A stretch of 57,387 bases of DNA, the filler included, from Dimargaris cristalligena (lineage: Eukaryota), in the NCBI GenBank assembly GCA_003614675.1. It is 4 parts of 4 records of this genome, joined end to end, with 100 filler letters (N's around TTAATTAATTAA, not from the genome) between each part and the next. Parts side by side here need not be neighbours in the genome. Positions count along the whole stretch, not along the records: positions 28,830 to 43,060 come from ML002957.1; 3 more parts are not named here. One strand, 5' to 3'. The notes below the pieces were generated by a model. The model had not been told where the DNA came from and ran no database searches. It saw nothing but the letters and a program-made list of their open reading frames with translations. This document shows positions 6,901 through 54,101 of this stretch, in pieces (positions within the stretch are counted from its first letter, which is position 1; the number at the start of each line of letters is the position of its first letter). Made by a program: the position numbers and the translations under genes.

Positions 6901-7122
6901 TCTGCACCCACACACTATTCTTGTTTTCTTTGCCCCCCGGTCGTTTTCTTATCATATTTATCCTATATTTTGCCCCTTTTTTTATATATTTGAAACTCAG
7001 GCTACCTGTTGCCACTGTCCCCCCGGTGTTATCTGTCTGGGCCCGCCTTATTGTCTCCCGTATTATCTCCCCGCCCTGTGGTCTCGCTTGCCATACCACA
7101 CGAACACACAACCCCCCCAGTC

Positions 7123-14337: not shown

Positions 14338-14437
14338 NNNNNNNNNNNNNNNNNNNNNNNNNNNNNNNNNNNNNNNNNNNNTTAATTAATTAANNNNNNN
14401 NNNNNNNNNNNNNNNNNNNNNNNNNNNNNNNNNNNNN
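14338..14437. other. Artificial contig-joining linker (44 N + TTAATTAATTAA + 44 N)
   Basis: Identical 100-nt structure at three places; the 12-mer gives stop codons in all six frames. Confidence 0.97.
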
Positions 14438-17778: not shown

Positions 17779-18851
17779 CTGGGCCAACCCGAACCGAAAT
17801 TGACACTCGGTCGATTAGTCTCTTGTGGTCATTAATTGACCCAATTCCCCTACTGGGTATACCATATACTATCCCCCTTCCCCTTCCTCCGTTAAGCACA
17901 GGCTTCTCGGTCTCAATATGGGGAAGGTTCAAACTGGCTGTATAACAAAAAATACATTAGATAAAATTCATATTACTGGTTAAAAACCAATACCCCATCT
18001 ATTCTCTCGTACACATCATTCAAAACCTTATGCAGCTGGTCTGAATTCCGCCCATAGGATGCCAATAAATAACGGGGTTGCACTTCTTAATATTATATAT
18101 ATGAGTGCCATTAGTACCTTTTTATGAGGTCTATTCCAGCGAAAATTCAGTTGTCAATACGACTTTTTTTTGGAATGCCAAAGGTTTTAGGAAATAGTTA
18201 TCTACATACTACATGCCAAGGGAGAATATTCCGTTAATGAGCCAACCGACAGTCAGGTTACTTGATTGTATTTGAAAATCAGAAGTAGATTGGCCGGCAA
18301 CCCGAAGACTGCCAGACCAGTGTAAAGATGACTTAACGGCGATTTATTCATTGGCTATGGCAGTGGGCTCGTACTTATCCGATGACATAGGTATAGGGCT
18401 GACACTTTGCTCTTGCTGCCAATTGCGGGTTACTTAGGGTGCTATCCAATTTCTTTTGAATGGTTGCGAAATATAACCATGAGGATGGCATTGCCCATTG
18501 CTTCCAGCAGCGTCATTAAATGTAAAGAAATATAAATACCACCACCACCACTAGGCTTTCAGCGTTCTAATCATAGGCCGTTCAACTGGATCAGCACTTG
18601 GTTTCCTGCGGCACACAAATCTCAAGGCCAATCATTTCCCTTACTGTGGCTCTCAGTGCTTAAAAATTGGAAAGCGGACAGCTTTTTCGTGAAAGCAGGG
18701 GGAGGGGGGAACCCCTATTATTGCCCGGTCACTTGCGTGCTCTACTACTACCCTCTTGCCCTCGATTTCCAATGGCACCAAATGCTTCTTTTCACTCCAC
18801 CAGCCTATTTTCTCTTCCGTCCGCTCTATATTTGACTCGCATCTGTCAACC

Positions 18852-20071
18852 ATGGCCGTCAGCATTGATAGCTTCATCCGGTTTGGTTCCATCGCTGGTC
18901 TGCATTACTCCACCAGCGCAGTGCTTGCTACGCTTTTTCTTTATCTAGGCCACCCTCTATTGAGCTTCTACCCGGTGCTCTGTTATCTGGCAACTTTGGT
19001 ACTAGCTTACTGGGCGGTACTCCAACGCCGCCACCAGCGGCGCTGCCAGGCATTCGATTGGTCGGAGGAAATCATCCTGGTGACCGGCGGGGCAGGAGGC
19101 ATTGGTCAGCTCCTGGTAGATACTCTCGCCATTCAAAATGCCACGGTAGTCAGTCTGGACATTGTTGAACCTGACTGCGGACTGTGTAAGTACCCCTTTC
19201 AGTATCCTACTCCTGAAGAGCGGGCCTTCAATTCGGCCAGCATTAGCTTGGCGTGGCTCATTCTAGGTCGATGGACTGGTTGACACAGGTAAAAACATTC
19301 AATAGACCTTGGAGGGGAAAAAACGGGCTATCCCATCAGTCTGCCCTATTCTAACCGTGCCACACTATTTACCACCACCTTGTCCCTCCTGTCTTTGTAA
19401 ATGCAGGGGGCAACGTTCACTTTTATCAGTGCGATTTGAATGACCCTCAGCAAATCGACACTACTTATCAGCAACTGGTTGAAGAGGTGGGTCACCCCAC
19501 AATCATTATTAACAATGCCGGAGTTGTGCACCCCAAGACCGTGTTGGAGCAATCGACCGCCAATGTAGCCAAAATCCTACAGATCAATACACTCGCACCC
19601 ATTCAATTAGTCCGATTAGCGCTTCCCGCCCTCCTGGAGGCCCGGCGCGGCCATATTGTGAACGTCTCATCCGTTCTGGGCTACGTCTCGCCCTGTCGAG
19701 TAAGTGCGTACGCCGCTAGTAAGGCCGCCCTGGCTGCTTACACCGACTCCCTCCGCCAAGAATTACGCCACAAGTTGGACGGAGGTCAGGATATCCACGT
19801 TACGTTGGTCGCCCCGGGGTTGGTTTCGACTAAATTATTTGCGGGTGTGGAGCTCGATCCGTTCCTTAGTCCAGCCGTCGAGACTCTGGATGTTGTACAG
19901 GCTATTGTCAAAGCCATCGCGTCCGAATCGGACCACCAGATTAAACTGCCTTTCTACGCCGTGGTGGCCCCTTTCATGGTGGGATTTCCCCTCTGTTTGA
20001 AGCGTGTCATGCATTTTGTTGCTGGGTCGAACCATGCATTGGACCCCAAAGATACCAAAAAAACAATCTAG
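18852..20071 (+). CDS. Short-chain dehydrogenase/reductase with N-terminal membrane anchor (retinol dehydrogenase/17-beta-HSD11/Tda5-like), join(18852..19185,19407..20071)
   Basis: ILVTGGAGGIG Rossmann motif, YQCD, IINNAG, GHIVNVSS and catalytic YAASK. Intron 19186..19406 has GTAAGT, CTAAC and CAG and joins the two ORFs in frame. Confidence 0.92.
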
Positions 20072-24440: not shown

Positions 24441-24884
24441 TTGGCAAATTTGGGGCATTCAGTCAGCGCGAGTGTTGTGGTGGGCCCTTTCAGCCTCACA
24501 CTCCCTGGGTCGTGTCCTCATGTGTGTATGCTGCTTGTGTGTATGTTTACCGGACCAGGCTTTCCTATATCATCCTCGCCCTTCTTCTATTTTGTCTGTG
24601 TCTATTATATTGTATTCTTTCGTTCTTTTATTTCCCTCTTGGCTTATTTATTGTGCTTTGGCCTTGTTGTAGCTGGCGGCGCCTTGTCTTTATATATTGT
24701 CTTTCCTACTATCTACTGCTATTATCCTTCATTTCTCTTGCATATATATTCTTAATCTGCTCATCAACTTGGGTGGCCGCCACCCTCGCTTTACCCTTGT
24801 AATCACCCGTGTGTGTGTGTGTCTTTTTCCTTCTTCCCTTTGCCTTGGTGCTTGACCATCCACGAGATTGTGCTACCCTTGCCC

Positions 24885-27800
24885 ATGTCCAAGTTCTCCA
24901 AGCTTAGCTCCGGTCTGCCTGTTCCGTCGGGCCTCCCTCCCCCGACCAGCAGCAACAGCCGGTCCGAGTCACCCCGTGCCCCTCGCAAATCCCTATCGCA
25001 CTTCACCCCCGTCGGAGACAACTATAGTCTGGCCATGCCCCCGCCTTCCCGCATTTCCACCGGCTCACTACCTCCTCCGTTCCAGCCCACCACCGGCCTT
25101 CATCGCCGAATGTCATCCATATCGTCAGTCACCGACGCCGACTCCCAGCCATCGGCCTCGTCGTCCCCGCCCTCGCTGCTCCCGGCCTACGCCAACTCCG
25201 CCGCCAAACCACCAAATCCCCGGTCGTCCCTACTGTCCCCATCCCCTACCGGCGCCCCGTCCGGCTTGCTCCCCATGTCCAGTATCCGCAAATCGACCAC
25301 CTTTTCGCCTGCGCTGACCCAGCCCAACTCCAGGGGGATTATCCCGGCCTTTCGCAAACTGAGCCTTGGTAAACCCCCCACCGGGGTCGTTGATGAATTC
25401 CAGCCAGCTCTACCCCCGCTACCCCCTAGCTACACGGCCTCCCCGGGCCTATCTATACCGGCACCCACCTCCTACGCCGGACAGTCCTCCACCCCACTAG
25501 ATGGGGATATAACCCCACGGCGAGAGGTCCCCATGGACGACGCCCTGCCCTCACCAATCACCCCCGTCACCCTACCACCAGCCTCCGGGCGACCGCATTT
25601 AAGCTCCGAGCGACCCACTTCCCCAGCCGTCCTGTCCCAGAAATTCGCTGTCGAGGATCCGATTACGGTCCCCTCCATGGGCCTTTCCGGCACCCTTAAA
25701 TTTATTGGCCCAGCCAAGTTTAAGCCGGGTATCTGGGCCGGGATCCAACTCGACACCGACGGTGCCGGCAAAAATGACGGAACCGTTGGCGGGGTGCGAT
25801 ATTTCGACTGCCCGCCTAATTGTGGTATCTTTGTTCTGGCCCAAAAATTAGCCAGGTTCGGCGATACTGACTCAATGGCTCTCAAATCCACCGACTCTAC
25901 TCCGGGTATTGGTCTAGTTACCCCCGGGCCCCCCACCTCGGGAATCCAGCGACCCACCCCCGGGGGTCTCCTCCTGCCCACTCCTTCTAAATTGGGACCC
26001 CGGCTGGGTAAAGGCACCAATGGATCAGCCATTAACCTGCGTAAATACGGCCGACCCACCCCGAATCCTAACGATCGCTCTCTACCTTCACCTGGTCCCG
26101 TTGGCGCTGGTTTACCTCCCACCCGGCCAAATGGACTGGCCCCGCCGAGCGTTAGCCGTTCCAGTTCCGGCCGCCGCATGACGATTGGTCCGACGGCCAA
26201 TGTCAGGAACGCCCGGACTTCCCCGGTGTCCCGGCATGATCCCCAAGCCATGTCCACCCGAGCCCGCTCACCATCAGCCCCGCAACGGACAGCTGGCTTG
26301 TCCACCCGAGGACTAGCGAATGGCAATCTCGCCAATTCCGCTCGTAGTGCAGCCCTCGCCAATACAGGGAGTGCACCGGTCCGTCGCACTCCTTTAGGGC
26401 CCGGGTCACGGCCAACGGTCATGTCCGATTCGCGTTTAACCGGCCGGTGGCGGGACACTCTAGCGAATCCCCGCAAGCCTCCCGCTAAACTGGCGGCCGA
26501 AGCGGGCAAATCGTCCGGTACAGCCACCCCCCGCAACCCGCCCCCGGTCGATGCTAACCAATCGCCGTCCCTGTCCCCCGCCATTCCGGTCGAGCTTTTC
26601 CAACGGGTCAAGCTTAAACTGGAGATGCTCGAGGCCGAAAATAAAGTCCTCCGGTTGGAGAATAAGCAAGGGCGGGCCCAGCTGGAAGCACGCCAGCTGG
26701 TCGAGAAAGATCTAATTCGTAAGCAGGTGCTCGAAGAAATCGGTGCCTCCAAAAATACCCCCAACGGGGGGGACCACGGATTGGCGTCGGCCAAGTCCCA
26801 GCGGACCGAGTCCGATGAGTCGACCCAACCGGGCACACCACCGGGGCAGGAATCCCCCCTGCTGAAACGCTCCCAAGCGGTGGGTCAAGCCATGTGGCCC
26901 GCGTCGGTAGCTGGAACCCCCAGCCGAAATGACGGGGAGGCCCTGCCTTCGATTGGGGATCGGATCGCCAAACTTAGCCAAAAGTTCGCCTCCATCGATT
27001 CCTCGCCCGGCCGGCGGGACTCGTCACAATCCGACAGTAGTTCGCAGTTCTCCCTAGAGCGCAAACAGTCCACCAGTAATATCAAGCCGGAGGGTCACGA
27101 AGACAACCTCAACGATGAAATCCTGCAGCTGACGGAAGTGATCCAGAACAAAGAAAAAACCATCAAAGATCTGGAGACCCAATTGGCTGAGCGACGGGCC
27201 GCATCCCCATCGTCCCCTGGTGGGACAAGTAAGAAATTATCACTGGACCAGGCCCAGACCGAGATTGAACAGCTGCGCCGGGACATGTCCCAATTACACG
27301 CCCAGCTAGAGGCTGCCGAGCAAACCCGGCAACTGGCCGAACTGGCCCACCTGGAGGAGCGCCAGAAATTCGAAGCTCAACTATCCGACGAACGGGCGGA
27401 CGCCCAAAAGTCCGTCCAGGTAATCGAGGAACTCAAGGCCGTCCTGGCCGAGAATGAGAAAATCGTTGTTCAGCAGAAGGAGGATATCCAGGCCCTTATT
27501 CGACAAATGGACATTTTGGTAGGCAAGGCTCTGCACGCGATGCAGGTCATCCGGGAAATGGACTGGGCGGAGGATAGCCAGGCCACTCTAACCGGGACCC
27601 GTGGAGAGGGACCAGCCCGGACTGCTGACCACGCCCCCTTTACGGCTGTCTCGGCCGAGTCGGATGACCTGGTGAGTCTTCAGCAAGAACAGAGTGAACA
27701 GGTATCCCGGGCTCTAGATAGTACCGCGCAAGCGGTGGAGCGTCTCCAAAAGGTCAACCACCGACTCTCCATGGACCTTCATTCAGTACTTCAAGAACGG

Positions 27801-28729
27801 GCTCTCTCGCCATCCGACGGTACCGCCGTTTCGGTAGCGCCGGTTTCGTCGCGGTCCACACCACCCCCCATGGCCAATGGCACCTCAGCTATCGTACACG
27901 GATCCCCCTTTGGCAATGACGGCAATACCCACACCATTGATGCGGAAGAACGGTACCGCCAACTGGTTGCGGAGAACGAGGTCCTCCAGGCCCAGTGCGA
28001 GGAGCTGAAAATAGACCTGCGGCAAAAGGAGGACTTGGTCGCTTCCCTATACCGTAAGAAGCACGCCGCTGCCGGACTGGAAGGGCGGTCGCCGTACTCA
28101 CCCGGGTCCTTCCTCGGCACAGTCTCCAATTCGTCCCAGGCCGACCTGGAATTCGATTTCGCACTGAACGGCAGCCAAGAGAGCCTCCGCCGCCCGGGCG
28201 GGTGCGATGAAGCCATCCACCCCACGGCGCTGAAAAACCCCCTGCACCCGGCCCTGAATGATTCACTGAAGGAGCTGCATATGTTGGTATCGGAGGCCGA
28301 AGTCGACCAGATTGATGTGAGCAACGAGATTCTAGGCGAGGAGGTGCTTCGCCTACGTGAAACCTCGACGGAACTCCAGCAACGGTTGGAAGATGCCTTG
28401 GCCGAAAAGGCGACCATCCAATCCCGTGTGGAAGCGGCCGAAGCCAAATTGGCCCAGTGTATCAAGGACCTGGAGGGGGCCCAGCAGCGGTATGAAGCGC
28501 AAAGCGGTGAGCTTGAAGCGGCCCAAGATGCTATTGCGGCCCAGGCCAGTCAGATTGACCAACTTAAGAACCCGTCGAGCCGGGGACGGGCGTCCGATTC
28601 AACGGCATCCTCCGCCGAAGCCGAAACTGTAGCGGCGGCGACGGCGGTGGCCCAATTACGGCGCGAAGTGGATGACCTGCGTAATTTGATGGCCGCTAAA
28701 GATAACCAGGTCCGGGGACTGCCCTTATT
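24885..28729 (+). CDS. CAP-Gly domain coiled-coil microtubule-binding protein (CLIP-170/Bik1/Tip1-like), 3'-truncated at contig end
   Basis: First ATG at 24885. CAP-Gly GTLKFIGPAKFKPGIWAGIQLDTDGAGKNDGTVGGVRYFDCPPNCGIFV (~25690-25840). Ser/Pro-rich flanks and long heptad-rich C-terminal half. Frame runs into the linker. Confidence 0.88.
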
Positions 28730-28829
28730 NNNNNNNNNNNNNNNNNNNNNNNNNNNNNNNNNNNNNNNNNNNNTTAATTAATTAANNNNNNNNNNNNNNN
28801 NNNNNNNNNNNNNNNNNNNNNNNNNNNNN
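28730..28829. other. Artificial contig-joining linker
   Basis: 44 N + TTAATTAATTAA + 44 N. Confidence 0.97.
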
Positions 28830-31800
28830 CGAAGGGTTGGTGGTGGTGATTGCCGGCCGCCCTCGCCAACGCTGTAGCGGGGGACGGCATAGGATGGTGG
28901 TCAGAGTGAGAGTATGGGTGTGAGGGTGGGGCCGCACGGGATGCCGACGGGCCTAGTAGAGTAGACGTGTTGGAAGAACTGCTGCCCGACGGGTAGACAA
29001 CCCCTTGATTCGGAGGGTGTGAGCCTCGACCTCGGCCCTGACCAGCGGTGGTAGTGTTCGTTTTGGTTGGAAGGAGCGATACGGGTCGGGAAGATCGACT
29101 AGACTCACCCGGAGGTAGTGGTGGGGCCGCCGCACCACCACCACCACCACCATTATTATTATTATTATTATTATCTGGCATTGACTTGGGAGGTAGGAGA
29201 GACGGGGCCGTAGGCGCAGAGTGGCCATGTCCATGCCCATGGTAATCCGTCGCTGTCGCTGACCGACCTGGTTTACGACTGCGGGATCGACCCTGCCCGG
29301 ATGTACGGTCATCGCCGTCTTCCCCCGATGAGCCCATCGGCCCCGGTGCCTCGTTACCCCGTCCCCCACTACCACTACTGCCATGGGCCCCAAAATGCTT
29401 CCGCAAAATCCGGCCAATATCGGGTCGTTGGTCCATATCCGTAATTTTCACCGCAATCGGGTATTTCGGCAGGACTGCGGCCGTTTGGCCCGAGGCCGCA
29501 GAAGGTGTTCGTCGGGTTTCCAGGGCCACCATGTCCACGTGGATAGCCAAACACTGCTGGTAACACTCAAAAAGATGCTGGTAGAGTGGGCGTAAGAACT
29601 CCGGAATTTCGTCCCGAATTTGACCGAGCCGGATAGGGTCATCGGAGTATAACGAGGCGGACCCCGCTGGACCACCGCCATTACCACCACCTCCTCCGGA
29701 AGTTACGGCAGCTGTTGCCGTAGCAGCCCCCCGGGCCCCTTTGGGCCACATCCCTTCGTCCAATTCCGATTCAGCTAGCCAGGCGGCCTGGTGGGGTCGA
29801 CCTGCGGCGGCAGATGAGGCATCTGACCCGTTACCGGTCGCGGGTAGGGTAAACTGATGAATACTATCCGGCAAATTCTTCTGAGGCACCCTAAACTCCA
29901 CCGTACGCTGCAGACACGAAATCTGGACCACAATTCCATTGTAAAACTTCATCAACAAATTGCCCATGGGTTCGTTTTCCATGTACGAGCACCGCGCCTG
30001 GGGGGTGGTCAATATAATGCGGGCCGTTTTCGAGCGCACGAGCTGGACGAACCGGATGATGTGGTCAAACGATTTGGTGTACTTGGCGGGTAAATCCGCG
30101 GTGGAATACTGGGCCGTGGGGGTGAGGGTTCGGAGGTCCACGTCTTCGGTCATGACGGGCACGTCCCGACGGGCGAAGAGGTAGAGTTTGGTACCCCGGG
30201 CATTAACGAGTAATACTTCCCGGTCGCCGTTGAAGTGGGCCATGACCCGGCCGTCCGACCGGATTTCAAAAGTGACGTGTTTGGTCGGTTTGTGAATGGG
30301 GTGGAGCCGTTTGGTATTGACGAGTCCCTGTGTCGATGAGGCCGTCATGGTGGTGGTCGTGGTCGTGCGGTGGGAGGGGTTCAGGCGGGTTGACGTGATG
30401 GTCAAGGGCTCCCGGCCGGTATGACGGTGGGTGGTTACGGGCGCACTCGCCGAGGGTCCTCCCCCCGAACGGCCGGGCGGGGTGGCCGCGGGGTACATGG
30501 GCTGGCCGTCCGGATAGGCGGCGTGGGTCAAGGTGGGTGTAGCCACCTGGCCATTGTAGGTGGATGCGGGGCGACGATTCAGGGCCCGATACACCGCATC
30601 CAGGCAGCTGGGCGGCGTTTCGGCGGCTAGTGATGGGATGGACGAATAGTAGGCGGCGGCGGTGGTGGTGGCGGGCGGTTTGTGGACGGCCGGTAGTGTA
30701 TGGGCAATGGAGGCAATATAGGGTAACGAAACCACCGGCAGATCGGGTCGAAAAAACGGGTGGTGCAACAGCTGCTGGGCCGTTAAACGGTTCCGGGGGT
30801 TAAGTTTCAACAAGCCCCGCACCATGGACCACGTTTCGTCGGACAGTCCACTGGGCATTTCGGACCACAAGCGTTGGAGGGCGCGGTCATCGATAGTTGC
30901 CGGGGTTGGCCCGCCGAGGACACCGGTGGGACCGCCATGGTCATAATCATCCATAACCCCACTCCCGAATGGGGGTTTACCGGTTAAAAACGACACAAAC
31001 AAACACCCCAATGACCACATATCCGACGGTGGACCGTACGTTTGCCGGGCCCATATTTCGGGGGGCAATATAGTTAGGGGTCCCGCACATGGTTTGGGGT
31101 TCGGGACTGCCCACCGGTCCGTCGTACCGAATGGCGAGACCGAAATCGCACAATTTCACCTGCATGGTCGCGGTCCACAAAATATTCGCTAGTTTCAAAT
31201 CGCGGTGCAGAATGCCCCGGTGGTGGAGGTACTGGACGGCCTGGACCAACGGGTACAGCACCCCGCGTGCTTCCGCCTCGTCCAAGGGCCGCTGGATGCC
31301 GTTCCGTAAATAACCGTACAGTTCACCCTGTTGGCACAGTTCCAGGACTAAATATACATACTGCGGGTCTTCGAAATAATCGTACAGGGTAACAATGTGG
31401 TTGTGGTGGGCCCGCCAGTGGATTTCCACTTCCTGGGTGAGTCGCGCGCGGAGTTCGGGCGTATGGAGTTGGTTTTTGGCGATCCGTTTAATCGCTACCC
31501 ATTCGCCGCGGCGTGGACCCCGGTGGCCTTGGGCTAGGTAGACTTGCCCGAAAGCCCCTGAACCGATGCGATGGCTGAACGTGTAATCGTCCGGCGAGCC
31601 GCTGGCAGCAGCAGCAGACTCATCGGCGGAGGGTAAGGCTGGAGCGTTGGGAGTGGGCTCTGCTGCTTCGCGGTAGTATGGCCGAGGGGCGATGGTGGCG
31701 CTAACACCGTGGTCACGAACCCGCCAATTGGGGCGGAATTTAGTCATGCGCTCATGGAAACCCTGACTGAATAAGTTGGGTGCCCCTGTAGCGGCTGCGG

Positions 31801-31954
31801 TTGGCAGTGGTGGTGGGTGGGGAGCCCTACCGTAATGGTCCGGATGTACGTCTCGTCCGGCTGATTCAGGGTGGTATACGCGTCGGTTGGTGGCATTGCC
31901 CAGGGGCTGGACAACTGGGCCCTGGATGGGGCCTGGCCTACGGGAGTACGCCAT
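28830..31954 (-). CDS. PLK4: Polo-like kinase 4 (PLK4/SAK) orthologue; one-base frameshift at 31060-31065; 3'-truncated at contig end
   Basis: Kinase motifs IGSGAFG, VAIK, EVEIH..HIVTLYDYFEDPQYVYLVLELC, HRDLKLAN, DFG, TMCGTPNYIAP/EI, DMWSLGC..LTGKPPF. Cryptic polo box (~29860-30325): NTKRLHPIHKPTK...YSTADLPAKY...RFVQLVRSKT..I...ARCSYMEN..FYNG, closely resembling animal PLK4 PB1-PB2. The two ORFs join if one G of the G6 run is removed. Confidence 0.88.
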
Positions 31955-34320
31955 GGAGGGAATCCTAACAATTCTTTTTGAATAGAAATGTCGCTGCTTG
32001 TAAAAGTAATAGTAAATATAATAATAATAATATAAACATGTGATGGTCTGAATAAGCGACCTAAACGTCCGGAAATTTGTTGAATCGACAAGCCGGGCGG
32101 GGGAATCAAAGAGGTAAATAAGGCCAAAGACTGGCGAAGCGACAAAATCAATAGAACGGACAATGGGCTGTCCTATACAAGCCTTAACAAAGGGTTGTCA
32201 GAAGAAGTAAACAGCCTAAGCGAAGGGTGGTGGATTTCTTGACAGTCGGAGTGGGAAAGGTCAACTATAGGTGGCCTAGACCCTGAGCAAGTCCAACTCT
32301 GTGGGCACCTAAACTGAACTCTACTGAGCTAGGAGTGCGGGGAAAGTAGCCCCCTAGACGAACTTTATTCCGTGCCTGTACTGAGGACGCGGATAAGCCT
32401 GATGGGTAACAACCGTACAGGACGGGGTTTTAAAGCCAGGGCCATTGATACAACCGTTGTTTATGGTTAGTGTTTTTCCAAAGCCCAAGTAAGCCAATCC
32501 AGATGAAGCCCCCCCCCTTCCACCAAGCCAATCAATAGGTTAACTTTGTTTACTTCGGGTGGTAGAGTGTATATTGATCACGTGGATTTGCCAAATTATA
32601 CTTACTTGCCTCGTCTCTCTGTGAACGTGTTATATGATAGACCCATACCATAGTAGTTTCCAACTCAGTATTGTATCTTCCCCAAATACCACGTGGGTCA
32701 GCGAGTGCCCTTGCCTTAAACAGACGAGGTTCGTCATCGCCAACGTGCCAGGGAAAACTTGTCGCCGTGGGGGGGATACGGGGCCCGCTTCCGCCTAGTT
32801 CGTCGACTTACTTCGACTGCAGCTCCCACATCTGCTAATCTATGAGCCTGTTGCCCATCCTCGTGTCGTAATGAAGCATTCGGTATCTAATATCCGCAGA
32901 ATCCCCCATGCCACCGAGTCACGGCCATCCATACCATGCAGAGAAAACTAATTTTAGGCGTGGTTGGGGGTAGTTGGTGTTGTCGGTACACGATGCTATG
33001 TGGGTATATCCCCCCCATTCTGCGTACATCACTCTTCTACAAGTTGACGTAATTCTTCGGCTCCAGCAATAATGAACGACTGATTGCGGATTTATTTTCC
33101 ACACTGAGTCCGCCCCCTCCCCTTCGAAGTAGTCCGAATTTCGGATACTCTCACGCCAAAGTCCGAACTTTATATCTCGAAGGTATTTGGCTGTTGCTCC
33201 TGATATTGCCTGTCAATGTCGGGCGCGTGCTGGAGGTGGGTGGGGGTGTTGTAGTCAATAACCCATCCCTAATCTATAGAAGACCGATATTTTTGTATAT
33301 AAATATTCATGTGTGTATGTAATACCTAAACACCCGGACAGTACTAATGGTGAGAAATATGCTGGAACGAGTGAAGGTGGTACGCAAACAAGCCGATGAT
33401 TATACCCCCAATTTAAAGGACCGCCAGGGCCAGAGTCGTCGATTGGCGGGGATTGTCTCCCAAACATCGAACCATATTCGGCAACGTGAGACGAGCGACG
33501 AGTGTAATCTAGGCCCGGAAAGGGTCATTGGCCATAACATTAGAGCGGGGGATTTTACAGTAGGGGATGGCCCAGGCTTACCGCCACTACTTACTGTAGT
33601 AGGTAGTATTATGTCTCCCTTCTCCTGGATGCAATGGCATGGTTTCGCTTATATTAAAATGGGCTGAGGGGTATGGGGGTGGCTCCCATATCTACAAGAT
33701 ACTATACATCTTCTCTTTCTACACCCATCTGCTGTTGAATCAGCTGTTTGGCCAGCCCCAATAATAATATCAACGGCCGTGAAAGATATCCGAGCTAATG
33801 CCCCCCAGGAAATATAAGTTGGCTTTGTTTTAAAGTGAGGCACAGCGTAGCGGGCAGCCCAGCCTCTCACTTACTAACTTACTTACTTACTTACTCGCTG
33901 ACACTCACTCCCTCCCTCATTCAAACACTTGCTTAATCGCATTCTTCCGCTACTGCCATACATACTCTTTGGCGTTGACTCCGAAAAACAAAGCAGCCTC
34001 TCCTCTCTCTCTCTCTCCTTTTATTAGCAAGTCTCGGGGGGCTATATTGCTTAGCGCCATAGTCTCTGCATTATTCCCATATCCGCTTTCTTAACCCTCT
34101 AACACTTCCACCTTCGGCTTCTACTCCCTTGGCTTTTCCCGGCTACTCAGTGGGCTATTGCCTCCCCCTTATACTATTCCTATTCCTATTCTTATTCTTA
34201 TTATTCTTATACCTATCCTCATCCCAACCCAACCCTTCGCTTCACTTCAACTCTTTCCGACAAACCCACATATACGCCGACATTCCAATCACTTCACCGC
34301 CCTTATCTATTTTCGACCCC

Positions 34321-37300
34321 ATGTCCACCCCCACCAACCTGGGTCTGAAGGACCGCACCCCGGCCGAGACGCTCGGTTCCAATCCCGAGGAAACCGAGGC
34401 CCGCCTTAAAAACGCCCTGGACACTATCCGCGATCAGAATGCCGAGCTGGACAAGGCCGCCAAGTACCGTTACCAACTCAACTCCGAGAAGAAGGAGCTC
34501 ATCAATGAACTCAACCTCCAAAAGAATAATCTCCGCAGTATGCTGGGCGACGTGTGGGCCAGTAACTCGGACAGTGAGGACCACCCACCCCACCCTCCCT
34601 TCCCGCGGCACCTGTCCGTGCAACCCACCTCCCCCAGCGGAGGAGGAACAGGTGGTCGTCCCTTGCCCCACTCGTTCCGGCGGGCCACTACTTTCCAGTC
34701 CGACAACCAACGCATGCTCCATAGCGCCCAGCGGGAGGGGCAGGACTATAAGACCCGGCTGGCCAAGTCCGAAATCCGACTGTCCGAACTGGAGGCCAAG
34801 CACGAAACCGTGCTCCAGACCCATGCCAAGGCCCTGCGCAAACTCGACCAAAAACTCGTCCAGACCCAACAGGCCCACAAGAACACCCAAAAGACCGTGG
34901 ACATGTTGCACGAGGAGCGCGAGCGGCTCATCCAACGTCACCACAAGGAAATCAAACTGGTGCGCGACCGGCTCGAACGCGACCTGGCCGAACTGCAGAG
35001 TTCGTTCGTGGCCCAGGAGGCCCGGTTCGACCAACGGACCGTGCAACTCCAGAACCGGAACGGCCAACTCGAAGCGCAACTCCGGATGGTCCAGATGCAA
35101 AAAAGTTCCCTCGAAGAAAACGTCCATGATTTGGTCAAGGAATTCACCGAAAAAATCGCCCGCATCGAGGAACTGGAACAGCTCGTCGAAATTGGGGACC
35201 AGTACCGTGAACAGTACGAACAGCAAACGGAAGCCATGCAGGCCCTGCAGGTGGAGCTCGAGGATAGTCGGACCCGACTGCAAATGCGCCTTACCCCCAG
35301 TCCGTCCCCCGCCGCGTCGAGCTCCTCCCTACACCACCCTCCTCCTCATCATCATCCATCACAGCATCCGGCCCCCGGGACGGCCAACCAGGCCTCGTTT
35401 ATCCGGTCCGAGTACCCCTTTGTGGAAGTATCCGACGACGAATACATCCAGAGCCAGGGTCGGGGACCCCGGCGGCCGCATAACCGCGAACAACGCCTGG
35501 TACGCCGGGCGGTCACCCAAAGTGCCCAGCAGAAAACCCGACTGGTCCAGGATTTGGCTACCCCCCACGACGGACCCGCCTTATCCGCGGTGGCCGCCGT
35601 GGCTGCTGCTGCCGCCGCGGCGCAGGGGCAGGGTAACCCGGTCTTATCCCTCCAAAACCAGAAGGAAGCCCTGGAAAGGGAAACCGACCGGCTGATCCAA
35701 ACCCTGGGGGCCGCTATTGCGTCGCGGGGCAAAGCCATCTTTACCGGCCCGTTGAATTCCTGGGGTAAGAATTGGTTGGCCCGGAACCGTAGTGCATCGA
35801 GCCCCGGAAACCACCCGGGAGGGGGGGAGAGAGCGGCGGTGGTCGCCCACGGCGACGGTCCGAAAAAGGGGGACTCCCAGGGGGCGAAGTCCCACCGGCC
35901 TTCAACTACTACTACGGGTGCTTCTTCGGCTTCCTTTACCAGTGCCCCGAACGGTGGTGGTGGTGCTAAGGGAGGGGTGACGGCTACGATCGCGCTTGAT
36001 TCCTCCGAAACCCAGTGTTCCTCCCCGCCCAAGGTGCCACCCACCTCGGCGCCGGCCAAACTGGTCTCGGCCGATATCCCGACCTTCATGATGTCCCCTC
36101 CGGACGCCCATGTGCCCAACCTTGCCGTGGAGGAAACCGCCGCTTCCGTCGAACTTGACCCGGCGTTCGCGAGTCTACTCGGGGGGGATGCAATGCCGTT
36201 ACCAACGACGAGCCTGGACTTCTTCCAGAAACACCAGCCCCCTTCGCCTCCCCCCGGTGGGTTTCGCACGTCCGTGGGGCTGCACGACAACGGTCATCAG
36301 CACCACTACCTTCATCCGTCCCACCGCGGATCCGGTGATGATCACCAGGTTCTGGACGACGGATACATGGATGAGGACATTTTGGGTCAGTCGATGGTGG
36401 CCCACGCCTTAACCACCAGTTTCCAAGAGTATATGGGCGATATTCCCCAAGGAGGCGGTAGTAGAGGACGCCGTCGGAGCTCTACTTCGGCCCGGGGTCG
36501 TCGTGGCTTACCCACTAAACGACCCCTCGCTCCGTCCCGGGCCCCGGAATCCACGGCCGCCCTTAACTTCTCCGCCCTGTCCATGGACGGTCCCGACCAT
36601 TCGATGCTACTGGAAGGAGCAGTAGACACCCCCGATGACGGTGATGCCGTTAATGATGATGTCATCCCCAAAGGAATGGAAACCCTGGCTTCAATTAAGG
36701 CGCTTGATACTTGGGCAGCGGCGGCGGGACCTGATAGCGGTCATGACGACCCCGAGCATGGCCACGACTCGCTGTTAGATAATCCTAATCGGGGCCACCG
36801 TGGTCTACCGACGACCGGGGGATCGGCCAAGAAACGGGTGACGATCAGCCAAGAGGCCGTCGGACCGGACGGAGGGGATCACGTCTTCCCTAATTTGACC
36901 ACTTGGTTGCGGAATGCCACCCCACTGGTCAAAGTAGCCCACCACTTTACTTCCCCTGGACATTCGCCGCCCCCCTCTTCTTCGACTGCTGCGCACCCCC
37001 CTCCCTCCCACTCCACCGGGAGTCAGGTGGGCGGTTACTACGATTCGGCAGCAGCAGCATCATCATCATCCACAACCGCCCGGGAGCGCGGCCCTTTACA
37101 CCGGCGCCGTATTCCCGGGGATAAACCCTACCATTCGGCACCCAATTCCTCCCGGACTAACTTGGGCCACACTAGTACTAGTCATCTGAACTTAAGTACT
37201 TCGTTCGGTGACTCCGTGCTCGGCTCGGGTTCGGGATCCGGGGCCGGCGCTCCTCGGCACCGCCCCGTTTCAACCTATGAACGTCTCATTCGGTGGTTGA

Positions 37301-37419
37301 TGCGGTTCCTGTCGACTTTGTACCGGTGGTTCAAATTCATTTGTTTCCTGGTGTGTGGTTTCGCTTTGGTATTACTCGAAGGTCCCAATGGCACTTTCGG
37401 CAAACGCTACATTAGTTAA
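34321..37419 (+). CDS. Uncharacterised coiled-coil protein with disordered middle and single C-terminal transmembrane helix (tail-anchored)
   Basis: First ATG at 34321; 1032-aa intronless ORF. Heptad-rich N-terminal third. C-terminus RWFKFICFLVCGFALVLLEGPNGTFGKRYIS*. Confidence 0.82.
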   Translation: MSTPTNLGLKDRTPAETLGSNPEETEARLKNALDTIRDQNAELDKAAKYRYQLNSEKKELINELNLQKNNLRSMLGDVWASNSDSEDHPPHPPFPRHLSVQPTSPSGGGTGGRPLPHSFRRATTFQSDNQRMLHSAQREGQDYKTRLAKSEIRLSELEAKHETVLQTHAKALRKLDQKLVQTQQAHKNTQKTVDMLHEERERLIQRHHKEIKLVRDRLERDLAELQSSFVAQEARFDQRTVQLQNRNGQLEAQLRMVQMQKSSLEENVHDLVKEFTEKIARIEELEQLVEIGDQYREQYEQQTEAMQALQVELEDSRTRLQMRLTPSPSPAASSSSLHHPPPHHHPSQHPAPGTANQASFIRSEYPFVEVSDDEYIQSQGRGPRRPHNREQRLVRRAVTQSAQQKTRLVQDLATPHDGPALSAVAAVAAAAAAAQGQGNPVLSLQNQKEALERETDRLIQTLGAAIASRGKAIFTGPLNSWGKNWLARNRSASSPGNHPGGGERAAVVAHGDGPKKGDSQGAKSHRPSTTTTGASSASFTSAPNGGGGAKGGVTATIALDSSETQCSSPPKVPPTSAPAKLVSADIPTFMMSPPDAHVPNLAVEETAASVELDPAFASLLGGDAMPLPTTSLDFFQKHQPPSPPPGGFRTSVGLHDNGHQHHYLHPSHRGSGDDHQVLDDGYMDEDILGQSMVAHALTTSFQEYMGDIPQGGGSRGRRRSSTSARGRRGLPTKRPLAPSRAPESTAALNFSALSMDGPDHSMLLEGAVDTPDDGDAVNDDVIPKGMETLASIKALDTWAAAAGPDSGHDDPEHGHDSLLDNPNRGHRGLPTTGGSAKKRVTISQEAVGPDGGDHVFPNLTTWLRNATPLVKVAHHFTSPGHSPPPSSSTAAHPPPSHSTGSQVGGYYDSAAAASSSSTTARERGPLHRRRIPGDKPYHSAPNSSRTNLGHTSTSHLNLSTSFGDSVLGSGSGSGAGAPRHRPVSTYERLIRWLMRFLSTLYRWFKFICFLVCGFALVLLEGPNGTFGKRYIS

Positions 37420-38498: not shown

Positions 38499-39811
38499 TT
38501 AATGAATGCCTTCGGTTGGGTCGGGTCCTTCGAGTTTCTTGAAATGTTCGCAAACGATACGAACGTTGCTCGTAAGTGTGGCAATGGCTTATAATCCAGT
38601 GACAGTGGGGCATTACGGGCAGAGGAAAAGGTCGGAAATTAGTGGGAGGGGAACAGGACGCTGTCACGAAACATATTGCAATGGCAAGTAGGAGTGGGTC
38701 ACATATGGACATTCGGTTTCCGAGCTGTGCCGACAATCTACCAATGATAGAATTATCGGCCTGGCGATACAGCGAGTAAGAAGATGCAAGCGAGTGAAGG
38801 GATAAGTGTGCACTTACTCATATTGGGGTTGGTGGTGGTGGCCATCAGCACGGTATTCTTGGTAAAATTCGTAATAATCAGAATAAAGTCCTTTTGCCGA
38901 ATCCGGATAGTCTTGAATGACGTAGACCGTTTGTTATTGAGGGCCAAGTTAAAGCTCTTGAGGACGGACGAAAGTTGGTCAAACGTGAGGTTGTTGGTCG
39001 AATTCGGATGGGCCTGGTGTTCGGCAATGGCCAAAAACGACGATTTCTCGAACAAGACGACTTCAGCCACGTCCGCCACGGCGCAGAACTGCTGAAGGTG
39101 TTGGCGGATAAGATCAATGTTCGGCATGATGGAGTTCATGATTTTCGACCACGCGCGGTACAGCGAGGGTTCGAAAATGGACGTGCCATAGATTTCCACG
39201 GGCATTTTACCCGTCCGTTTACGAAGTTCCACCGTTTTATCGTGAATGACCTTATCCTGCACGTCCGTTCCTACGAGATCCATTTTATGGAGGAGACACA
39301 CCACTTTGGCGTCTTTGGAGTAGAAACGGATGGCCTCCAGGCATTGGTCAAAGTAGGCCAACTCACCGTCGAACTCCCGGTTTTCCATATCAAAGACATA
39401 AATAAGCATCTCGACGCTTTTAAAAATGTACTCGCGCTGGGTGGAGAAGAAGCTGAACATAAAGTTTTCTTGACCACCGCAGTCCCATAATGCCAGTTGG
39501 AGGCGGCCGAGGACCCGAACGGACACGTGTTCGACGTCCATTGTGGCGCCCAGTCGGCGGGTATCGTAGGGGGAATAGTGGGAGAAGATGATGGACCGCA
39601 TGGAGGTTTTGCCGGACCCACTTTTCCCCAACAGTAGAATCTAAAGGGTGGAGAGGCGGTTGTGGTATTCATAATGAACAGGGTTAATTCACCGAGAGTT
39701 GCTGAGACGCTTCGAAAATACATATCTATCAATACGACAGGTGCTGCGTGGATATACCTTCCTTGTGTGTAGGAAATTGCTTACCTTCTTTTTCGTTTCG
39801 TAGGAACTCAT
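38499..39811 (-). CDS. GTR1: Rag GTPase Gtr1/RagA, complement(join(38499..38587,38818..39640,39785..39811)), 312 aa
   Basis: KKKILLLGKSGSGKTSMRSIIF, RRLGAT, LWDCGGQE, LIYVFD, LHKMD, TSIF..SLYRAWS, EVVLFEK and C-terminal CEHFKKLE. Both introns are GT-AG with consistent phases. Confidence 0.95.
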
Positions 39812-43060: not shown

Positions 43061-43160
43061 NNNNNNNNNNNNNNNNNNNNNNNNNNNNNNNNNNNNNNNN
43101 NNNNTTAATTAATTAANNNNNNNNNNNNNNNNNNNNNNNNNNNNNNNNNNNNNNNNNNNN
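43061..43160. other. Artificial contig-joining linker
   Basis: 44 N + TTAATTAATTAA + 44 N. Confidence 0.97.
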
Positions 43161-52032: not shown

Positions 52033-54101
52033 ATGTGGAGTACCCTTTCCGCCCTTGTGGTTCTTCTGAGCGGAGCTACTTTGACCAGTGCCCGACCTGA
52101 ATCAACCCATGCGGGAGGCCATCCGCAGCCACCCACAGAAAGCTTCTCGGAAAATCTACTCGTCAACCCACTCACGTCGGATCGAATCCTGTCGCATTTT
52201 GAATTCGTCACCGCCACACACTTGCCCTCGTCTTCTGTCGCATCCGGTAAGTAGCTGTTACTAAGCCTCACTAATGGGAGGAACCGGCGGTGTTAGCAAA
52301 TACCCGTTATTAAACTCGTGAATGAGGGGATCTTAACCAAGTACCAAACTACTTTACTTAAACTGCTGCGCTGTCCATTTATGTAGACCGCGGCCAACAC
52401 TATCGACTCTTTCCCCGGCTGATTGGTCAAATTCTACACAAATACGGCGTGGAAGAATTCCACCTCACACTGACTCAGGGCCGTTGGGACTATGATAGCT
52501 GGGGCTATCCGGTCGAACCCAGCACCGCGACCGGTCTGGAACTGTGGACCCGTTTGGTTGATTCCGCCGACGTGGAGGAACGCTGGCGGGGTTTTAACAA
52601 CGCCCTCTCAGGCCTGTTCTGTGCCTCCATCAATTTCGTGGACCAAACCATTACCTCCGAACCCTCGCTTAGCTTCCGGCCCAACGGACAAGGGATGGTC
52701 GACCCGGACTCTGCTTCTGGGTCAGCCAACCCCACTACATCGTCGTCATCGTCATCCTCGTCGACTAACCAACCACCTACTATCCTTCGCCATTCCCTGC
52801 TAGCGCGGGAATCGGTCTGTACTGAAAACCTGACCCCGTGGATTAAACTGTTGCCGTGTCAGGGTAAGGCGGGTCTTACTTCACTACTCAATACCTATCG
52901 GTTATACGATACCAACTTCCACTCCATGGGCATTCATTTGGCTCGCACAGGGGCTTGTCCCCCGATCGGCCCTTGTGGCAATCGACCCGTCGAGCTCCGG
53001 CTGTCACTGGCCCTGGTAACTGACCGGACACGTCTGACCCACCAACCCGACCGTTTGTTGAGTACTCTGTTCGATAGGCACCTTGAGGGTAGCTGCCCTC
53101 TGGCCACCCAAAGCCGTATTACCCTTTTGGTGCCCGAGGTGAATGTAGGTCCTATGCGACTCGTGTCGGAACCTAGCACCTGGGATTCGGAAAGCCTCGT
53201 GGCCGGGCGTCGGGTGGCCCGTTTTGACCTCCACCATCTCACAGCCAAGACGGAGAATCGGACCAGTCCCTTTGAGATTTACACGGCCTGGTCGGATACC
53301 CTCCAACCCACGGCGGAATCTAACGGTGCAGCTGATGTGACACCCCTAACTTTTCACCGCCAACTAACGGGACATGGCCTGGAGCGCAATGGCCTAGAGG
53401 TGACGCTCTCGAACTTCCAGTCCACCGATGTGACCGTCACTTACCTGGACACCCTGCCTTGGTACCTTAACGTCTATTTCCATACCCTGACTATTCGTTC
53501 CACCCCGCTGCCTGAACCCATTGCCCTGGGTGATTCGTCACCAAGTGTGCTTACGACCACCAAGTATTGGCCCAATGTTCCCCAGCGGCAGTTTTGGCAG
53601 CCGTCCCACGACCATGGCCGTCCATCCGTCATGGAATTGGGTCTCCAACTACCAGCCCAGTCACTGACGATCCTCACCCTAGAATTCGACAAAATGTTCC
53701 TCAAGTACACGGAATACCCCCCGGACGCTAACCGTGGTATGACCGTGGGTTCGGCTGTATTAACCGCCCAACTAGCCCCCCAGCAGTCGAACAAGACCCA
53801 CGGTCCCAGGCTTAACAGCTGTGTTTACCAGAATTTGATCCGGAGCGATAGTGGTGCCGGTGCATCGGGCCCTGGGGAGGAAACCCCAGGTACCTGCTGG
53901 ACCCGTATGTATAGCGAGCCGTTCCTGGTTAGCTTACCAACCCCGGATTTCAGTATGCCTTATAATGTGATCGCCTTTACCTGTACCGTGTTGGCATTTT
54001 TCTTCGGTTCCATGTTTAACTCTCTCATTCGTGGATATCGGATTCTAGAACCCGCCCCATCGGCTGAAGAAGATCCAAAACCCTCTGTATCAGCGGGTTG
54101 A
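52033..54101 (+). CDS. GPI16: GPI transamidase subunit Gpi16/PIG-T, join(52033..52246,52387..54101)
   Basis: Signal peptide, ESFSENL, HYRLFPR, LTLTQGRW..WG, LSGLFCASINF, ESVCTENLTPWIKLLPC.GKAGL, EYPPDANRG, LPTPDFSMPYNVI and a C-terminal TM helix. Intron 52247..52386 is GTAAGT...TAG and in phase. Confidence 0.95.

Follow-up and report, generated by a model that had tools for sequence, protein, structure and literature searches.

A PLK4-type kinase with a cryptic polo box in Dimargaris cristalligena, a fungus of a non-flagellated order

We found that a stretch of DNA from the fungus Dimargaris cristalligena encodes a protein that is almost certainly an intact and functional orthologue of PLK4, and homologous proteins were detected in several other fungi that lack a flagellum. 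Judged from sequence comparison, the master kinase of centriole duplication persists in at least six non-flagellated fungal lineages with its targeting domains conserved. The window, i.e., the whole stretch of 57,387 nucleotides that was analysed, consists of four contigs joined via three artificial linkers (0.01 such linkers are expected by chance). The PLK4 gene is located on the minus strand (28831..31954), and its reading frame extends from the ATG at 31954 to the last coding base before an N run at 28831. The contig end at 28830 truncates the gene inside linker L2 and before the third polo box (PB3). The DNA to the left of the adjoining contig-join linker (28730..28829; 44 N, TTAATTAATTAA, 44 N) belongs to another contig. 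The sequence-only reading of this locus had proposed a polo-family kinase followed by an intact cryptic polo box, and Pfam searches (Pkinase, Plk4_PB1, Plk4_PB2) confirmed this order of domains on the minus strand. The word intact held for the cryptic polo box but not for the whole protein: since the gene is cut by the contig-join linker at 28830, its PB3 part lies outside the window. The supposed origin from a zoopagomycete or mucoromycete, as opposed to a flagellated chytrid or blastoclad, was also supported: the host is a zoopagomycete, since an NCBI protein from D. cristalligena is 100% identical. This mycoparasite belongs to the Kickxellomycotina and its order is non-flagellated (PMC6899921).

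The Ser/Thr kinase domain (30751..31585, minus strand) was recognized by Pfam Pkinase on both pieces into which a frameshift at 31060 divides the deposited reading frame. It carries all of the catalytic motifs VAIK, HRDLK and DFG (as DFGL) and the activation-loop sequence T.CGTPNY (as TMCGTPNY). The cryptic polo box (CPB) starts with PB1 (30034..30321, minus strand), which corresponds to residues 279-374 in the frame piece on the C-terminal side and scored 38.4 bits with Plk4_PB1 (Pfam cut-off 26.4). PB2 follows (29446..30030, minus strand) and comprises, according to Pfam and an AF2 model, a beta-sheet, a disordered insertion (about 29656-29820) and a closing helix plus strand. Plk4_PB2 matched at 37.2 bits (cut-off 26.9) over profile positions 1-43 of 108, which represent the sheet part. 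The AF2 model of the CPB reached an overall pLDDT of 80.2, mostly above 90 over PB1. It predicts strands at 109-167 and a helix at 250-279, and for most residues from 177 to 231 pLDDT did not reach 50. The PB2 insertion is thus predicted to be disordered, and it is lineage-specific with a length of roughly 55-70 residues. When the CPB model was searched with Foldseek, ranks 1-11 were PLK4 CPB structures (6n46_A, TM 0.79 normalised to target) and rank 12 was the CPB of ZYG-1 (E 1.3e-5). This divergent centriole-duplication kinase of Caenorhabditis elegans also carries a CPB, but matched far more weakly than PLK4. At the sequence level the CPB matched the human and fly CPB structures. A profile built from the fungal sequences between CPB and C-terminus gave 11 PDB matches at E<=1, all 11 of which were PLK4 (seven CPB, four PB3), and the E values for the seven CPB sequences ranged from 1e-28 to 1.5e-19. 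The motifs RFVQLVRSK, LPAKY and CSYMEN...FYNG, which had been read as PLK4 features, are all present in the translation, at positions where the family alignments are most strongly conserved. Prediction of a CPB homodimer from two copies returned 'no answer' (score 0.00, with the alignment left unused), which counts neither for nor against dimerisation.

Downstream of the CPB, the window contains only the start of linker L2 (28831..29445, minus strand), a low-complexity stretch in which runs of codons encode poly-N and poly-G. The window copy is without PB3 because of the contig end. In all five other Dimargaritales, the corresponding region is followed by a conserved C-terminal block, which we assigned to PB3. 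The fungal profile matched the four PLK4 PB3 sequences weakly (E about 0.02), and a Foldseek search with the PB3 model of Dispira simplex returned PLK4 PB3 structures at ranks 1-9, none of them at E<=0.001. In VIA-align this model gave Z 9.4 and an rmsd of 2.1 over 76 of 76 residues, which is tied with the polo boxes of PLK1 (Z 8.2-9.0 vs. 9.0-9.4 for PLK4 PB3). PB3 of the Dispira orthologue is therefore predicted to fold as a polo box, a fold that a single polo box of PLK1/Cdc5/Plo1 shares. Pfam POLO_box did not match PB3 in the Dimargaritales, and PB3 of Ambispora and Smittium scored only 14-16 bits, below the cut-off of 23. From these relatives and from the read contigs that continue past 28831 (X1, X2 and X4; X1 by 5547 letters) we infer the full architecture of the window copy.

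Upstream of the kinase domain, the protein carries an N-terminal extension (31586..31954, minus strand), which counts 123 residues up to the point where the Pfam kinase match starts. An extension of about 120 residues had been called unusual; its length was correct, but it is not peculiar to this protein, being common to all Dimargaritales. It contains the motif LFSQGFHER.T.FRP, which is conserved in six of six Dimargaritales; outside this motif it is only 30-32% identical to its counterparts, as low as the linkers. Linker L1 between kinase and CPB (30322..30750, minus strand) is poorly conserved and lacks a DSGxxT beta-TrCP degron, as had been noted, and a search for D[ST]G..[ST] found no such motif anywhere in the window protein. 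A DSGxxT-like degron was present in none of 18 non-flagellated fungal rows vs. six of six animal rows of the alignment. Of the 17 rows from flagellated Holomycota, Batrachochytrium alone shows a motif with loose similarity close to where the kinase ends. Since absence of the degron is common to flagellated chytrids, it is not special to Dimargaris and says nothing on function. The degron is not a family-defining feature outside animals, because it is missing from nearly all flagellated fungal PLK4s.

Compared with animal PLK4/SAK (human PLK4, Drosophila Sak), the Dimargaris protein shares the kinase domain (best PDB matches; 43% identity to Nematostella), the T-loop threonine, the PB1-PB2 CPB by sequence and fold and, as seen in the Dimargaritales orthologues, one C-terminal polo box. 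Unlike the animal enzymes it lacks the DSGxxT SCF-betaTrCP degron and carries the 123-residue extension and the disordered PB2 insertion, and unlike animals D. cristalligena has neither flagella nor classical centrioles. Chytrid PLK4s (Batrachochytrium dendrobatidis, Spizellomyces, Geranomyces) are the nearest flagellated relatives in our tree. They have the same architecture and, with the one loose exception, also lack the animal degron; the Batrachochytrium protein is identical to that of Dimargaris at 46% of kinase and 43% of PB2 sheet positions. In contrast to Dimargaris, chytrids possess centrioles and flagella, and their PLK4 branches are much shorter. For B. dendrobatidis, SAS-6, CEP135, CPAP, STIL and CEP295 are listed in the source data of PMC6559791.

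To place the gene among fungi, we compared it with its homologues. Full-length orthologues with the same architecture, including PB3, were found in five other Dimargaritales; their folded domains are 47-70% identical (66-70% for the kinase domain) and their linkers 22-33%. Further family members came from Coemansia, Harpellales (Smittium/Furculomyces), Basidiobolus, Ambispora and Calcarisporiella, all of them without a flagellum. In public sets these non-flagellated homologues are mostly called 'hypothetical protein', and one from Smittium culicis was automatically named PLK4. The CPBs of Basidiobolus, Ambispora and Calcarisporiella are chytrid-like and high-scoring (PB2 72-90 bits), whereas that of Coemansia falls below the Pfam cut-offs. 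This census comprised the best 120 kinase matches and name look-ups for 30 among the best 150 of 838 profile matches, eight of the 30 being without an organism. It contained no named match from Dikarya or Mucorales, but many matches were never named and the census does not prove that Dikarya, Mucorales, Mortierellales, Entomophthorales proper or Zoopagales lack the gene. Another profile search covered proteins of 1058-3020 residues, above the range of 626-1058 residues into which most PLK4s fall, and yielded seven proteins with the flagellated Piromyces finnis as sole addition.

A maximum likelihood tree of 41 rows, which were picked from the search matches and include no PLK1/Cdc5 outgroup, separated fungi (Holomycota) from animals (100/100). 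It supported Dimargaritales (100/100), Kickxellomycotina (100/99) and a grouping of Basidiobolus with Kickxellomycotina (92/83); the backbone of chytrids and Mucoromycota was unresolved. Kickxellomycotina PLK4s are located on long branches, whose stem lengths are 0.43, 0.8 and 1.11 (changes per column). The gene tree follows the species tree, and PLK4 has descended vertically from the flagellated ancestor of fungi and has been under constraint in a lineage that lacks flagella.

In two papers (PMC6070874, PMC6559791), PLK4 and other centriole-biogenesis proteins are described as absent from fungi except chytrids, and the molecules that compose the centriole-like ring of the spindle pole body of Coemansia are called unknown. 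By the terms searched, the fungi in the source table of PMC6559791 are only ascomycetes, Ustilago and one chytrid. We found no report of PLK4 in zygomycete-grade fungi (Zoopagomycota, Mucoromycota) in the literature searched, a scope outside which subscription journals and bioRxiv supplements fell, and the strings SAS6, SASS6, PLK4 and CEP135 were not found in seven supplementary files of PMC8371127. PLK4 in fungi without flagella offers a handle on the replacement of centrioles by spindle pole bodies and a marker with which the stages of centriole loss in fungi could be dated. Two of the at least six PLK4-bearing lineages are genera with centriole-like organelles, and the ultrastructural puzzle thereby becomes a testable molecular question: at which site the kinase is located, what its substrates are, and which partners have been kept.

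What does PLK4 do in Dimargaris? We propose that its role is the one PLK4 has in other organisms. CPB and PB3 would together direct the kinase to a microtubule-organising organelle at the nucleus. There it would phosphorylate a partner with scaffold function, which would permit a single round of duplication or assembly in each cell cycle. This organelle may be what is left of a centriole, comparable to the ring-shaped bodies that electron microscopy has shown in Coemansia and Basidiobolus. Turnover of PLK4 would have to be controlled otherwise than in animals, since the protein, like that of chytrids, lacks the SCF-betaTrCP degron. The evidence is about evenly balanced on whether PLK4 acts at such a nuclear MTOC or centriole-derived, nucleus-associated organelle. 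In its favour, homologues are present in Coemansia and Basidiobolus, two genera for which centriole-like nucleus-associated bodies are described (PMC6070874, PMC3281927). Against it count two statements in PMC6559791: the CPB receptors CEP152 and CEP192 are undetected even in chytrids, and Drosophila Plk4 does not localise to the spindle pole body in fission yeast. No account of the spindle-pole ultrastructure of Dimargaris was found in the literature searched. A wider reading, which we consider less likely than not, is that PLK4 builds the nucleus-associated organelles, ring-shaped and bearing microtubules, that have been observed by electron microscopy, that the transition from centriole to spindle pole body was gradual, and that PLK4 was lost several times independently (Dikarya, Mucorales, others) and not once together with the flagellum.

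The strongest competitor of our proposal is repurposing: a genuine and functional orthologue of PLK4 would have been kept, once centrioles were lost, for a task that has nothing to do with duplicating the nuclear MTOC, such as acentriolar microtubule nucleation, cytokinesis or septation, polarised growth or another step of the cell cycle. For animal PLK4, centriole-independent roles have been reported. The long branches of Kickxellomycotina and the low-scoring CPB of Coemansia are compatible with a changed function. Lineage-specific additions (the N-terminal extension with its own conserved motif, the disordered PB2 insertion) point in the same direction, as does the absence of the known CPB receptors from fungi, as stated in PMC6559791. 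However, not the kinase alone but the targeting domains PB1, PB2 and PB3 are conserved, retention of PLK4 coincides with genera that have centriole-like bodies, and Dikarya and Mucorales are missing among the named matches of the census. On balance, we consider such repurposing possible, though the less probable explanation.

Little is known of how these parasites pass through their life cycles, and PLK4 has been retained for a very long time across several lineages. One might conclude that true centrioles, or even a flagellated cell, are still formed in an undescribed stage by Dimargaritales and by the other zygomycete lineages with PLK4, which would have its classical function there. [quoted passage not shown]

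In the deposited assembly, a homopolymer (31060..31065, minus strand; GGGGGG on the plus strand, a C-run on the coding strand) contains one extra base that shifts the frame, and the public gene model P0001 (591 aa) begins only downstream of it. If the frameshift were real, the locus would be a young pseudogene and the protein a decaying relic; the low-depth X5 contig, which has a separate 1-base insertion at 30985, might be cited in support. However, when the reads were reassembled, the contigs of three of four runs (two samples, two studies) were one letter shorter at 31060 (X1, X2 and X4, with depths of 40.4, 25.6 and 208.3), whereas the X5 contig stops at 31064, four bases past the site, and is uninformative there. 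After removal of the extra base 1041 codons can be read without a stop, neither frame piece contains one, the catalytic motifs are all intact, and the orthologues of the five other Dimargaritales are intact genes with an uninterrupted frame across the homopolymer site. Because the reassembled reads of three of the four runs lack the extra base, this base at 31060 and the frameshift it causes are an error of the assembly, and a pseudogene is highly improbable. Most probably the fungus itself carries an intact gene, whose 3' end with PB3 lies beyond the contig end.

The sequence-only reading had assigned the protein to the PLK4 type and not to the Cdc5/PLK1 type, and one of the checks it proposed, a search with the Plk4 PB1/PB2 and POLO_box profiles, was carried out. 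Both Plk4 profiles scored above their cut-offs, and PF00659 POLO_box gave no match at E<=0.1 in the window protein and none at E<=0.01 in seven orthologues. When the kinase domain was compared with PDB by phmmer, four human PLK4 kinase-domain sequences came out on top (139-142.6 bits), followed by PLK3 (111.9 bits), PLK1 (at most 108) and Aurora C (102), so that PLK4 scored about 30 bits above PLK1-3. The names PLK1 and Cdc5 do not occur among the best 120 database matches to the kinase domain of the Dispira orthologue, of which all except three have both PB1 and PB2 as precomputed domains. It is hardly conceivable that an ordinary mitotic polo kinase (Cdc5/Plo1/PLK1 type) was misread as PLK4: membership in the same kinase family and the plain UniRef label 'Polo kinase' of the Basidiobolus homologue could suggest this, but Cdc5 would carry two canonical POLO_box domains in tandem where the window protein shows none at E<=0.1, the kinase domains of PLK1-3 score lower, and the PBD structures of PLK1 and Cdc5 match the CPB model weakly in arrangement (TM 0.27-0.32, i.e., about 0.3, with PLK1 PBD chains appearing from rank 14 of the Foldseek list).

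D. cristalligena is grown on a host fungus and the assembly is fragmentary (14 kb contig), but contamination by a flagellated organism or the mucoralean host has a negligible probability, as the protein nests among five other Dimargaritales (100/100) and the same DNA occurs in runs of three samples from two studies under one organism label throughout. Five runs were found in all, none of them listed as RNA. A tRNA scan of the window found none. The neighbouring ORF at 34063-37419 reached a best Protein Atlas score of 0.89, with generic coiled-coil clusters that allow no interpretation.

The PLK4-type gene lies on the minus strand at the left end of the contig spanning 28830-43060 and is divided between two overlapping open frames. 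The N-terminal frame piece (30977-32197, minus) holds an ATG at 31954, a 123-residue extension and positions 1-187 of 263 of the Pfam kinase profile. The C-terminal piece (28831-31155, minus) carries the remaining kinase, a linker, Plk4_PB1, Plk4_PB2 and a low-complexity tail running up to the N-run. In this second piece, Pfam scored Plk4_PB1 at 38.4 bits against a cut-off of 26.4, and Plk4_PB2, matched over profile positions 1-43 of 108, at 37.2 bits against 26.9; the window protein had no canonical POLO_box at E ≤ 0.1. Together with the kinase match, these data bear out the sequence-only reading, which had placed a PLK4-type kinase with a cryptic polo box (CPB, PB1-PB2) here; the motifs it had listed are all present in the window translation, at the positions that the family conserves most. 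The catalytic motifs (VAIK, HRDLK, DFG and the T-loop threonine) are intact.

Among solved structures, the kinase matched four human PLK4 kinase-domain sequences best (139-142.6 bits), followed by PLK3 (111.9 bits), PLK1 and PLK2 (≤108 bits) and Aurora C (102 bits). When the intact kinase domain of the Dispira orthologue was compared with 5.8 billion proteins (length range 587-1871 residues), 926 matches were obtained at E ≤ 1e-20. In the best 120 of these, Dimargaritales came first, then chytrid and animal PLK4s; PLK1 or Cdc5 never occurred as a row name, and the UniRef labels included one 'Aurora kinase' and two 'Polo kinase'. Precomputed PB1 and PB2 domains were found in all but three of the 120, the exceptions being two Dimargaritales proteins with PB2 only and one Coemansia protein with neither.

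The CPB sequence matched human and Drosophila CPB structures with 41.4 and 33.9 bits, respectively, and a profile built on the CPB-to-C-terminus part of six fungal proteins retrieved from the PDB, at E ≤ 1, 11 sequences, every one a PLK4. An AlphaFold2 model of the window CPB (36-row alignment, mean pLDDT 80.2, pTM 0.77) contains two polo boxes and a disordered insertion (pLDDT <50 over most of residues 177-231) that separates the PB2 sheet from the helix closing it. Since this insertion splits PB2, the Pfam Plk4_PB2 match is only partial. With this model as Foldseek query, PLK4 CPB structures took ranks 1-11 (E 2.5e-12 to 2e-9; TM 0.79 against 6n46_A, normalised to the target), and the CPB of C. 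elegans ZYG-1 followed at rank 12. In contrast, the polo-box domains of PLK1 and Cdc5 appeared from rank 14 onward (E 1.4e-4 or weaker) and fitted poorly, with a TM of about 0.3. Human PLK4 is the top kinase structure match, and human and Drosophila PLK4 both resemble the window protein in CPB sequence and fold. Kinase scores, CPB sequence and CPB fold all support the earlier assignment to PLK4 rather than to Cdc5/PLK1.

The two frame pieces are offset by one base where the coding strand has six consecutive C (31060-31065). We aligned to the gene contigs rebuilt by Logan from four public DNA sequencing runs (X1, X2, X4, X5). At 31060, the contigs of X1, X2 and X4 had one letter fewer (depths 40.4, 25.6 and 208.3); these three runs represent two samples from two studies, and the source of the assembly is possibly among them. 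The X5 contig is of low depth and ends four bases beyond the site, so that it is silent on the extra base. All orthologues read without interruption across this position, and with the extra base removed the gene comprises 1041 codons and no stops. The frameshift is an assembly artefact. The same holds for the truncation at 28830, where the gene ends because the contig ends: the X1, X2 and X4 contigs extend past this point, in X1 by 5547 letters, and therefore the stretch expected to encode PB3, the third, C-terminal polo box, is present in the reads, outside the window. These three contigs also carry C instead of A at 30453, which changes Ser to Ala in the linker between kinase and PB1 (L1); a single inserted base, within a homopolymer after 30985, was confined to the low-depth X5 contig. 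An NCBI protein of Dimargaris cristalligena, BJ085DRAFT_36032, matches the C-terminal frame piece at 100% identity. Its public gene model (P0001, 591 residues) begins 3' of the frameshift and carries a spliced-on tail in another frame; these two defects explain its filing as a hypothetical protein that lacks a kinase domain.

The N-terminal extension of about 120 residues noted in the sequence-only reading is real and common to all six Dimargaritales; it includes one short conserved motif and is otherwise as variable as the linkers. The absence of a DSGxxT degron was also correct, but it is no peculiarity of D. cristalligena: nearly all flagellated fungal PLK4s lack it too. The motif D[ST]G..[ST] is missing along the whole window protein and from all 18 non-flagellated fungal rows, whereas in each of the 6 animal rows it follows the kinase by 22-30 residues. 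The 17 flagellated holomycotan rows lack it as well, apart from a loose resemblance in Batrachochytrium, whose DTGTLS sits close to where the kinase ends.

A C-terminal block is conserved among the proteins of the other five Dimargaritales. The fungal CPB-to-C-terminus profile matched four PLK4 PB3 structures weakly (E about 0.02). For the block of Dispira simplex (model pLDDT 82.8), Foldseek ranked PLK4 PB3 structures 1-9, none at E ≤ 0.001, and VIA-align aligned all 76 residues at an rmsd of 2.1 with a Z of 9.4; single polo boxes from PLK1 and Cdc5 scored within one unit of this, a tie. The block is thus a polo box in the PB3 position.

D. cristalligena is placed by NCBI in the Kickxellomycotina, Dimargaritales, in line with the previously suspected zoopagomycete or mucoromycete host. 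PMC6899921 describes Dimargaritales as haustorial mycoparasites reproducing by merosporangia, and phylogenomic studies infer that the flagellum was lost once, at the base of Zoopagomycota, Mucoromycota and Dikarya (PMC8371127; PMC7865070). Full-length orthologues (1023-1196 residues) occur in Dimargaris xerosporica, D. verticillata, Dispira parvispora, D. simplex and Tieghemiomyces parasiticus. An hmmsearch of 1.84 billion cluster representatives with a CPB-to-PB3 profile yielded 838 proteins at E ≤ 0.001 (53 at E ≤ 1e-30). Organism names were looked up for 30 of the best 150 of these matches, and 8 of the 30 had none; those named include chytrids, one blastoclad, aphelids and several non-flagellated fungi. 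Among the latter are two Glomeromycotina, Ambispora leptoticha and A. gerdemannii (251 bits); Harpellales, with Furculomyces and four Smittium species reaching up to 204 bits and with S. culicis already carrying an automatic PLK4 annotation; and many Coemansia isolates, in which a 1090-residue form matched the whole profile (137.6 bits) and forms of 829-858 residues matched best in PB3 (about 108 bits). The two size classes are seen among the database proteins P0149, P0183, P0184 and P0115; the Coemansia RSA 1939 assembly has two 1090-residue entries. All these forms may be paralogues, haplotypes or species differences. Separate database searches revealed homologues in Basidiobolus ranarum and Calcarisporiella thermophila. 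In Pfam, Basidiobolus, Ambispora and Calcarisporiella have strong CPBs (PB2 72-90 bits), Smittium CPBs are weaker, and no Coemansia CPB exceeded the cut-off.

A maximum-likelihood tree was calculated from 41 rows chosen from the matches (18 non-flagellated fungi, 13 chytrids, 2 blastoclads, 2 aphelids, 6 animals; 749 columns), rooted on animals, with no PLK1 outgroup. Ultrafast bootstrap/SH-aLRT support was 100/100 for Holomycota, 98/96 for Fungi, 100/100 for Dimargaritales, 100/99 for Kickxellomycotina, 92/83 for Basidiobolus plus Kickxellomycotina and 94/84 for Coemansia plus Harpellales; the backbone was without resolution among chytrids, blastoclads, Ambispora and Calcarisporiella. Wherever resolved, the gene tree agrees with the species tree, which argues for vertical descent of PLK4 and against contamination as the origin of the contig. 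Within Dimargaritales, identity to the window protein is 66-70% in the kinase, 47-51% in PB1 and 63-68% in the PB2 sheet, compared with 22-33% in the linkers, a pattern that would be expected under purifying selection on the domains. These comparisons show that an apparently active PLK4 with conserved targeting domains has been retained since the split of the non-flagellated lineages.

The window protein belongs to a well-known family, and its own and its relatives' sequences are already in public databases. The phyletic picture in non-flagellated fungi, however, appears to be new. PLK4 and other centriole-biogenesis proteins are stated to be absent from fungi except chytrids in PMC6070874 and PMC6559791, and the species table of the latter has entries for Batrachochytrium and none for Rhizopus, Mucor or Coemansia. 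An older paper (PMC1599754) had linked the loss of the flagellum to that of centrioles in a single event. Full-text searches of the literature outside subscription journals found no report of PLK4 in zygomycete-grade fungi; this does not prove unpublished status. Specialists would be surprised, and the composition of centriole-like fungal organelles becomes directly testable.

As to function, there is about an even chance that PLK4 acts at the nuclear microtubule-organising organelle. Its polo boxes would dock the kinase at this organelle, and phosphorylation of a scaffold partner would license organelle duplication. We favour this role mainly because the kinase coincides with the two genera for which the cited papers describe centriole-like nucleus-associated bodies: Coemansia and Basidiobolus each have a PLK4 homologue, and these papers report a ring with nine microtubules of composition 'not known yet' in the former (PMC6070874) and a body 'superficially like a centriole' in the latter (PMC3281927). 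Against it count the long branches of Kickxellomycotina PLK4s in the 41-row tree and two statements in PMC6559791, namely that the CPB receptors CEP152 and CEP192 are undetectable even in chytrids and that fly Plk4 does not localise to the SPB in fission yeast. A repurposed role of PLK4 is possible but less likely. A hidden centriolar stage using PLK4 is very improbable. Pseudogene, PLK1 and contamination, even taken together, are very improbable explanations of a gene with intact catalytic motifs, a PLK4-like CPB fold and vertical descent.

An artificial linker (44 N, TTAATTAATTAA, 44 N; chance expectation 0.01) occurs three times in the window, at approximately 14338-14437, 28730-28829 and 43061-43160 (cores 14382, 28774 and 43105); the window is therefore a concatenation of four contigs. 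Genes separated by a linker, such as PLK4 and the large CAP-Gly and coiled-coil protein (24756-28728, plus; resembling CLIP-170 or dynactin p150 in its CAP-Gly domain, cut by the contig end), are no genomic neighbours. Upstream of PLK4, about 2.1 kb from its start, a divergent open frame of 1118 codons (34063-37419, plus) encodes a protein that has a coiled-coil region at its N terminus, is disordered over a long central part and ends in a hydrophobic anchor; it had no Pfam match, and its best Protein Atlas score was 0.89, to generic coiled-coil clusters. This tail-anchored coiled-coil protein could be a candidate nuclear-envelope or spindle-pole component. Elsewhere, we found an extremely acidic, repetitive E/V/A/T-rich protein without Pfam match (1-3585, plus; 1194 codons, 5' end open), a 1771-codon open frame (6994-12309, plus) that ends in a MINDY-type deubiquitinase domain preceded by an unusually long N-terminal region, and ordinary housekeeping genes for a short-chain dehydrogenase in two frames, reflecting an intron or another frameshift (18693-20071, plus), a Gtr1/RagA GTPase (38753-39640, minus) and the GPI transamidase subunit Gpi16 (52362-54101, plus).
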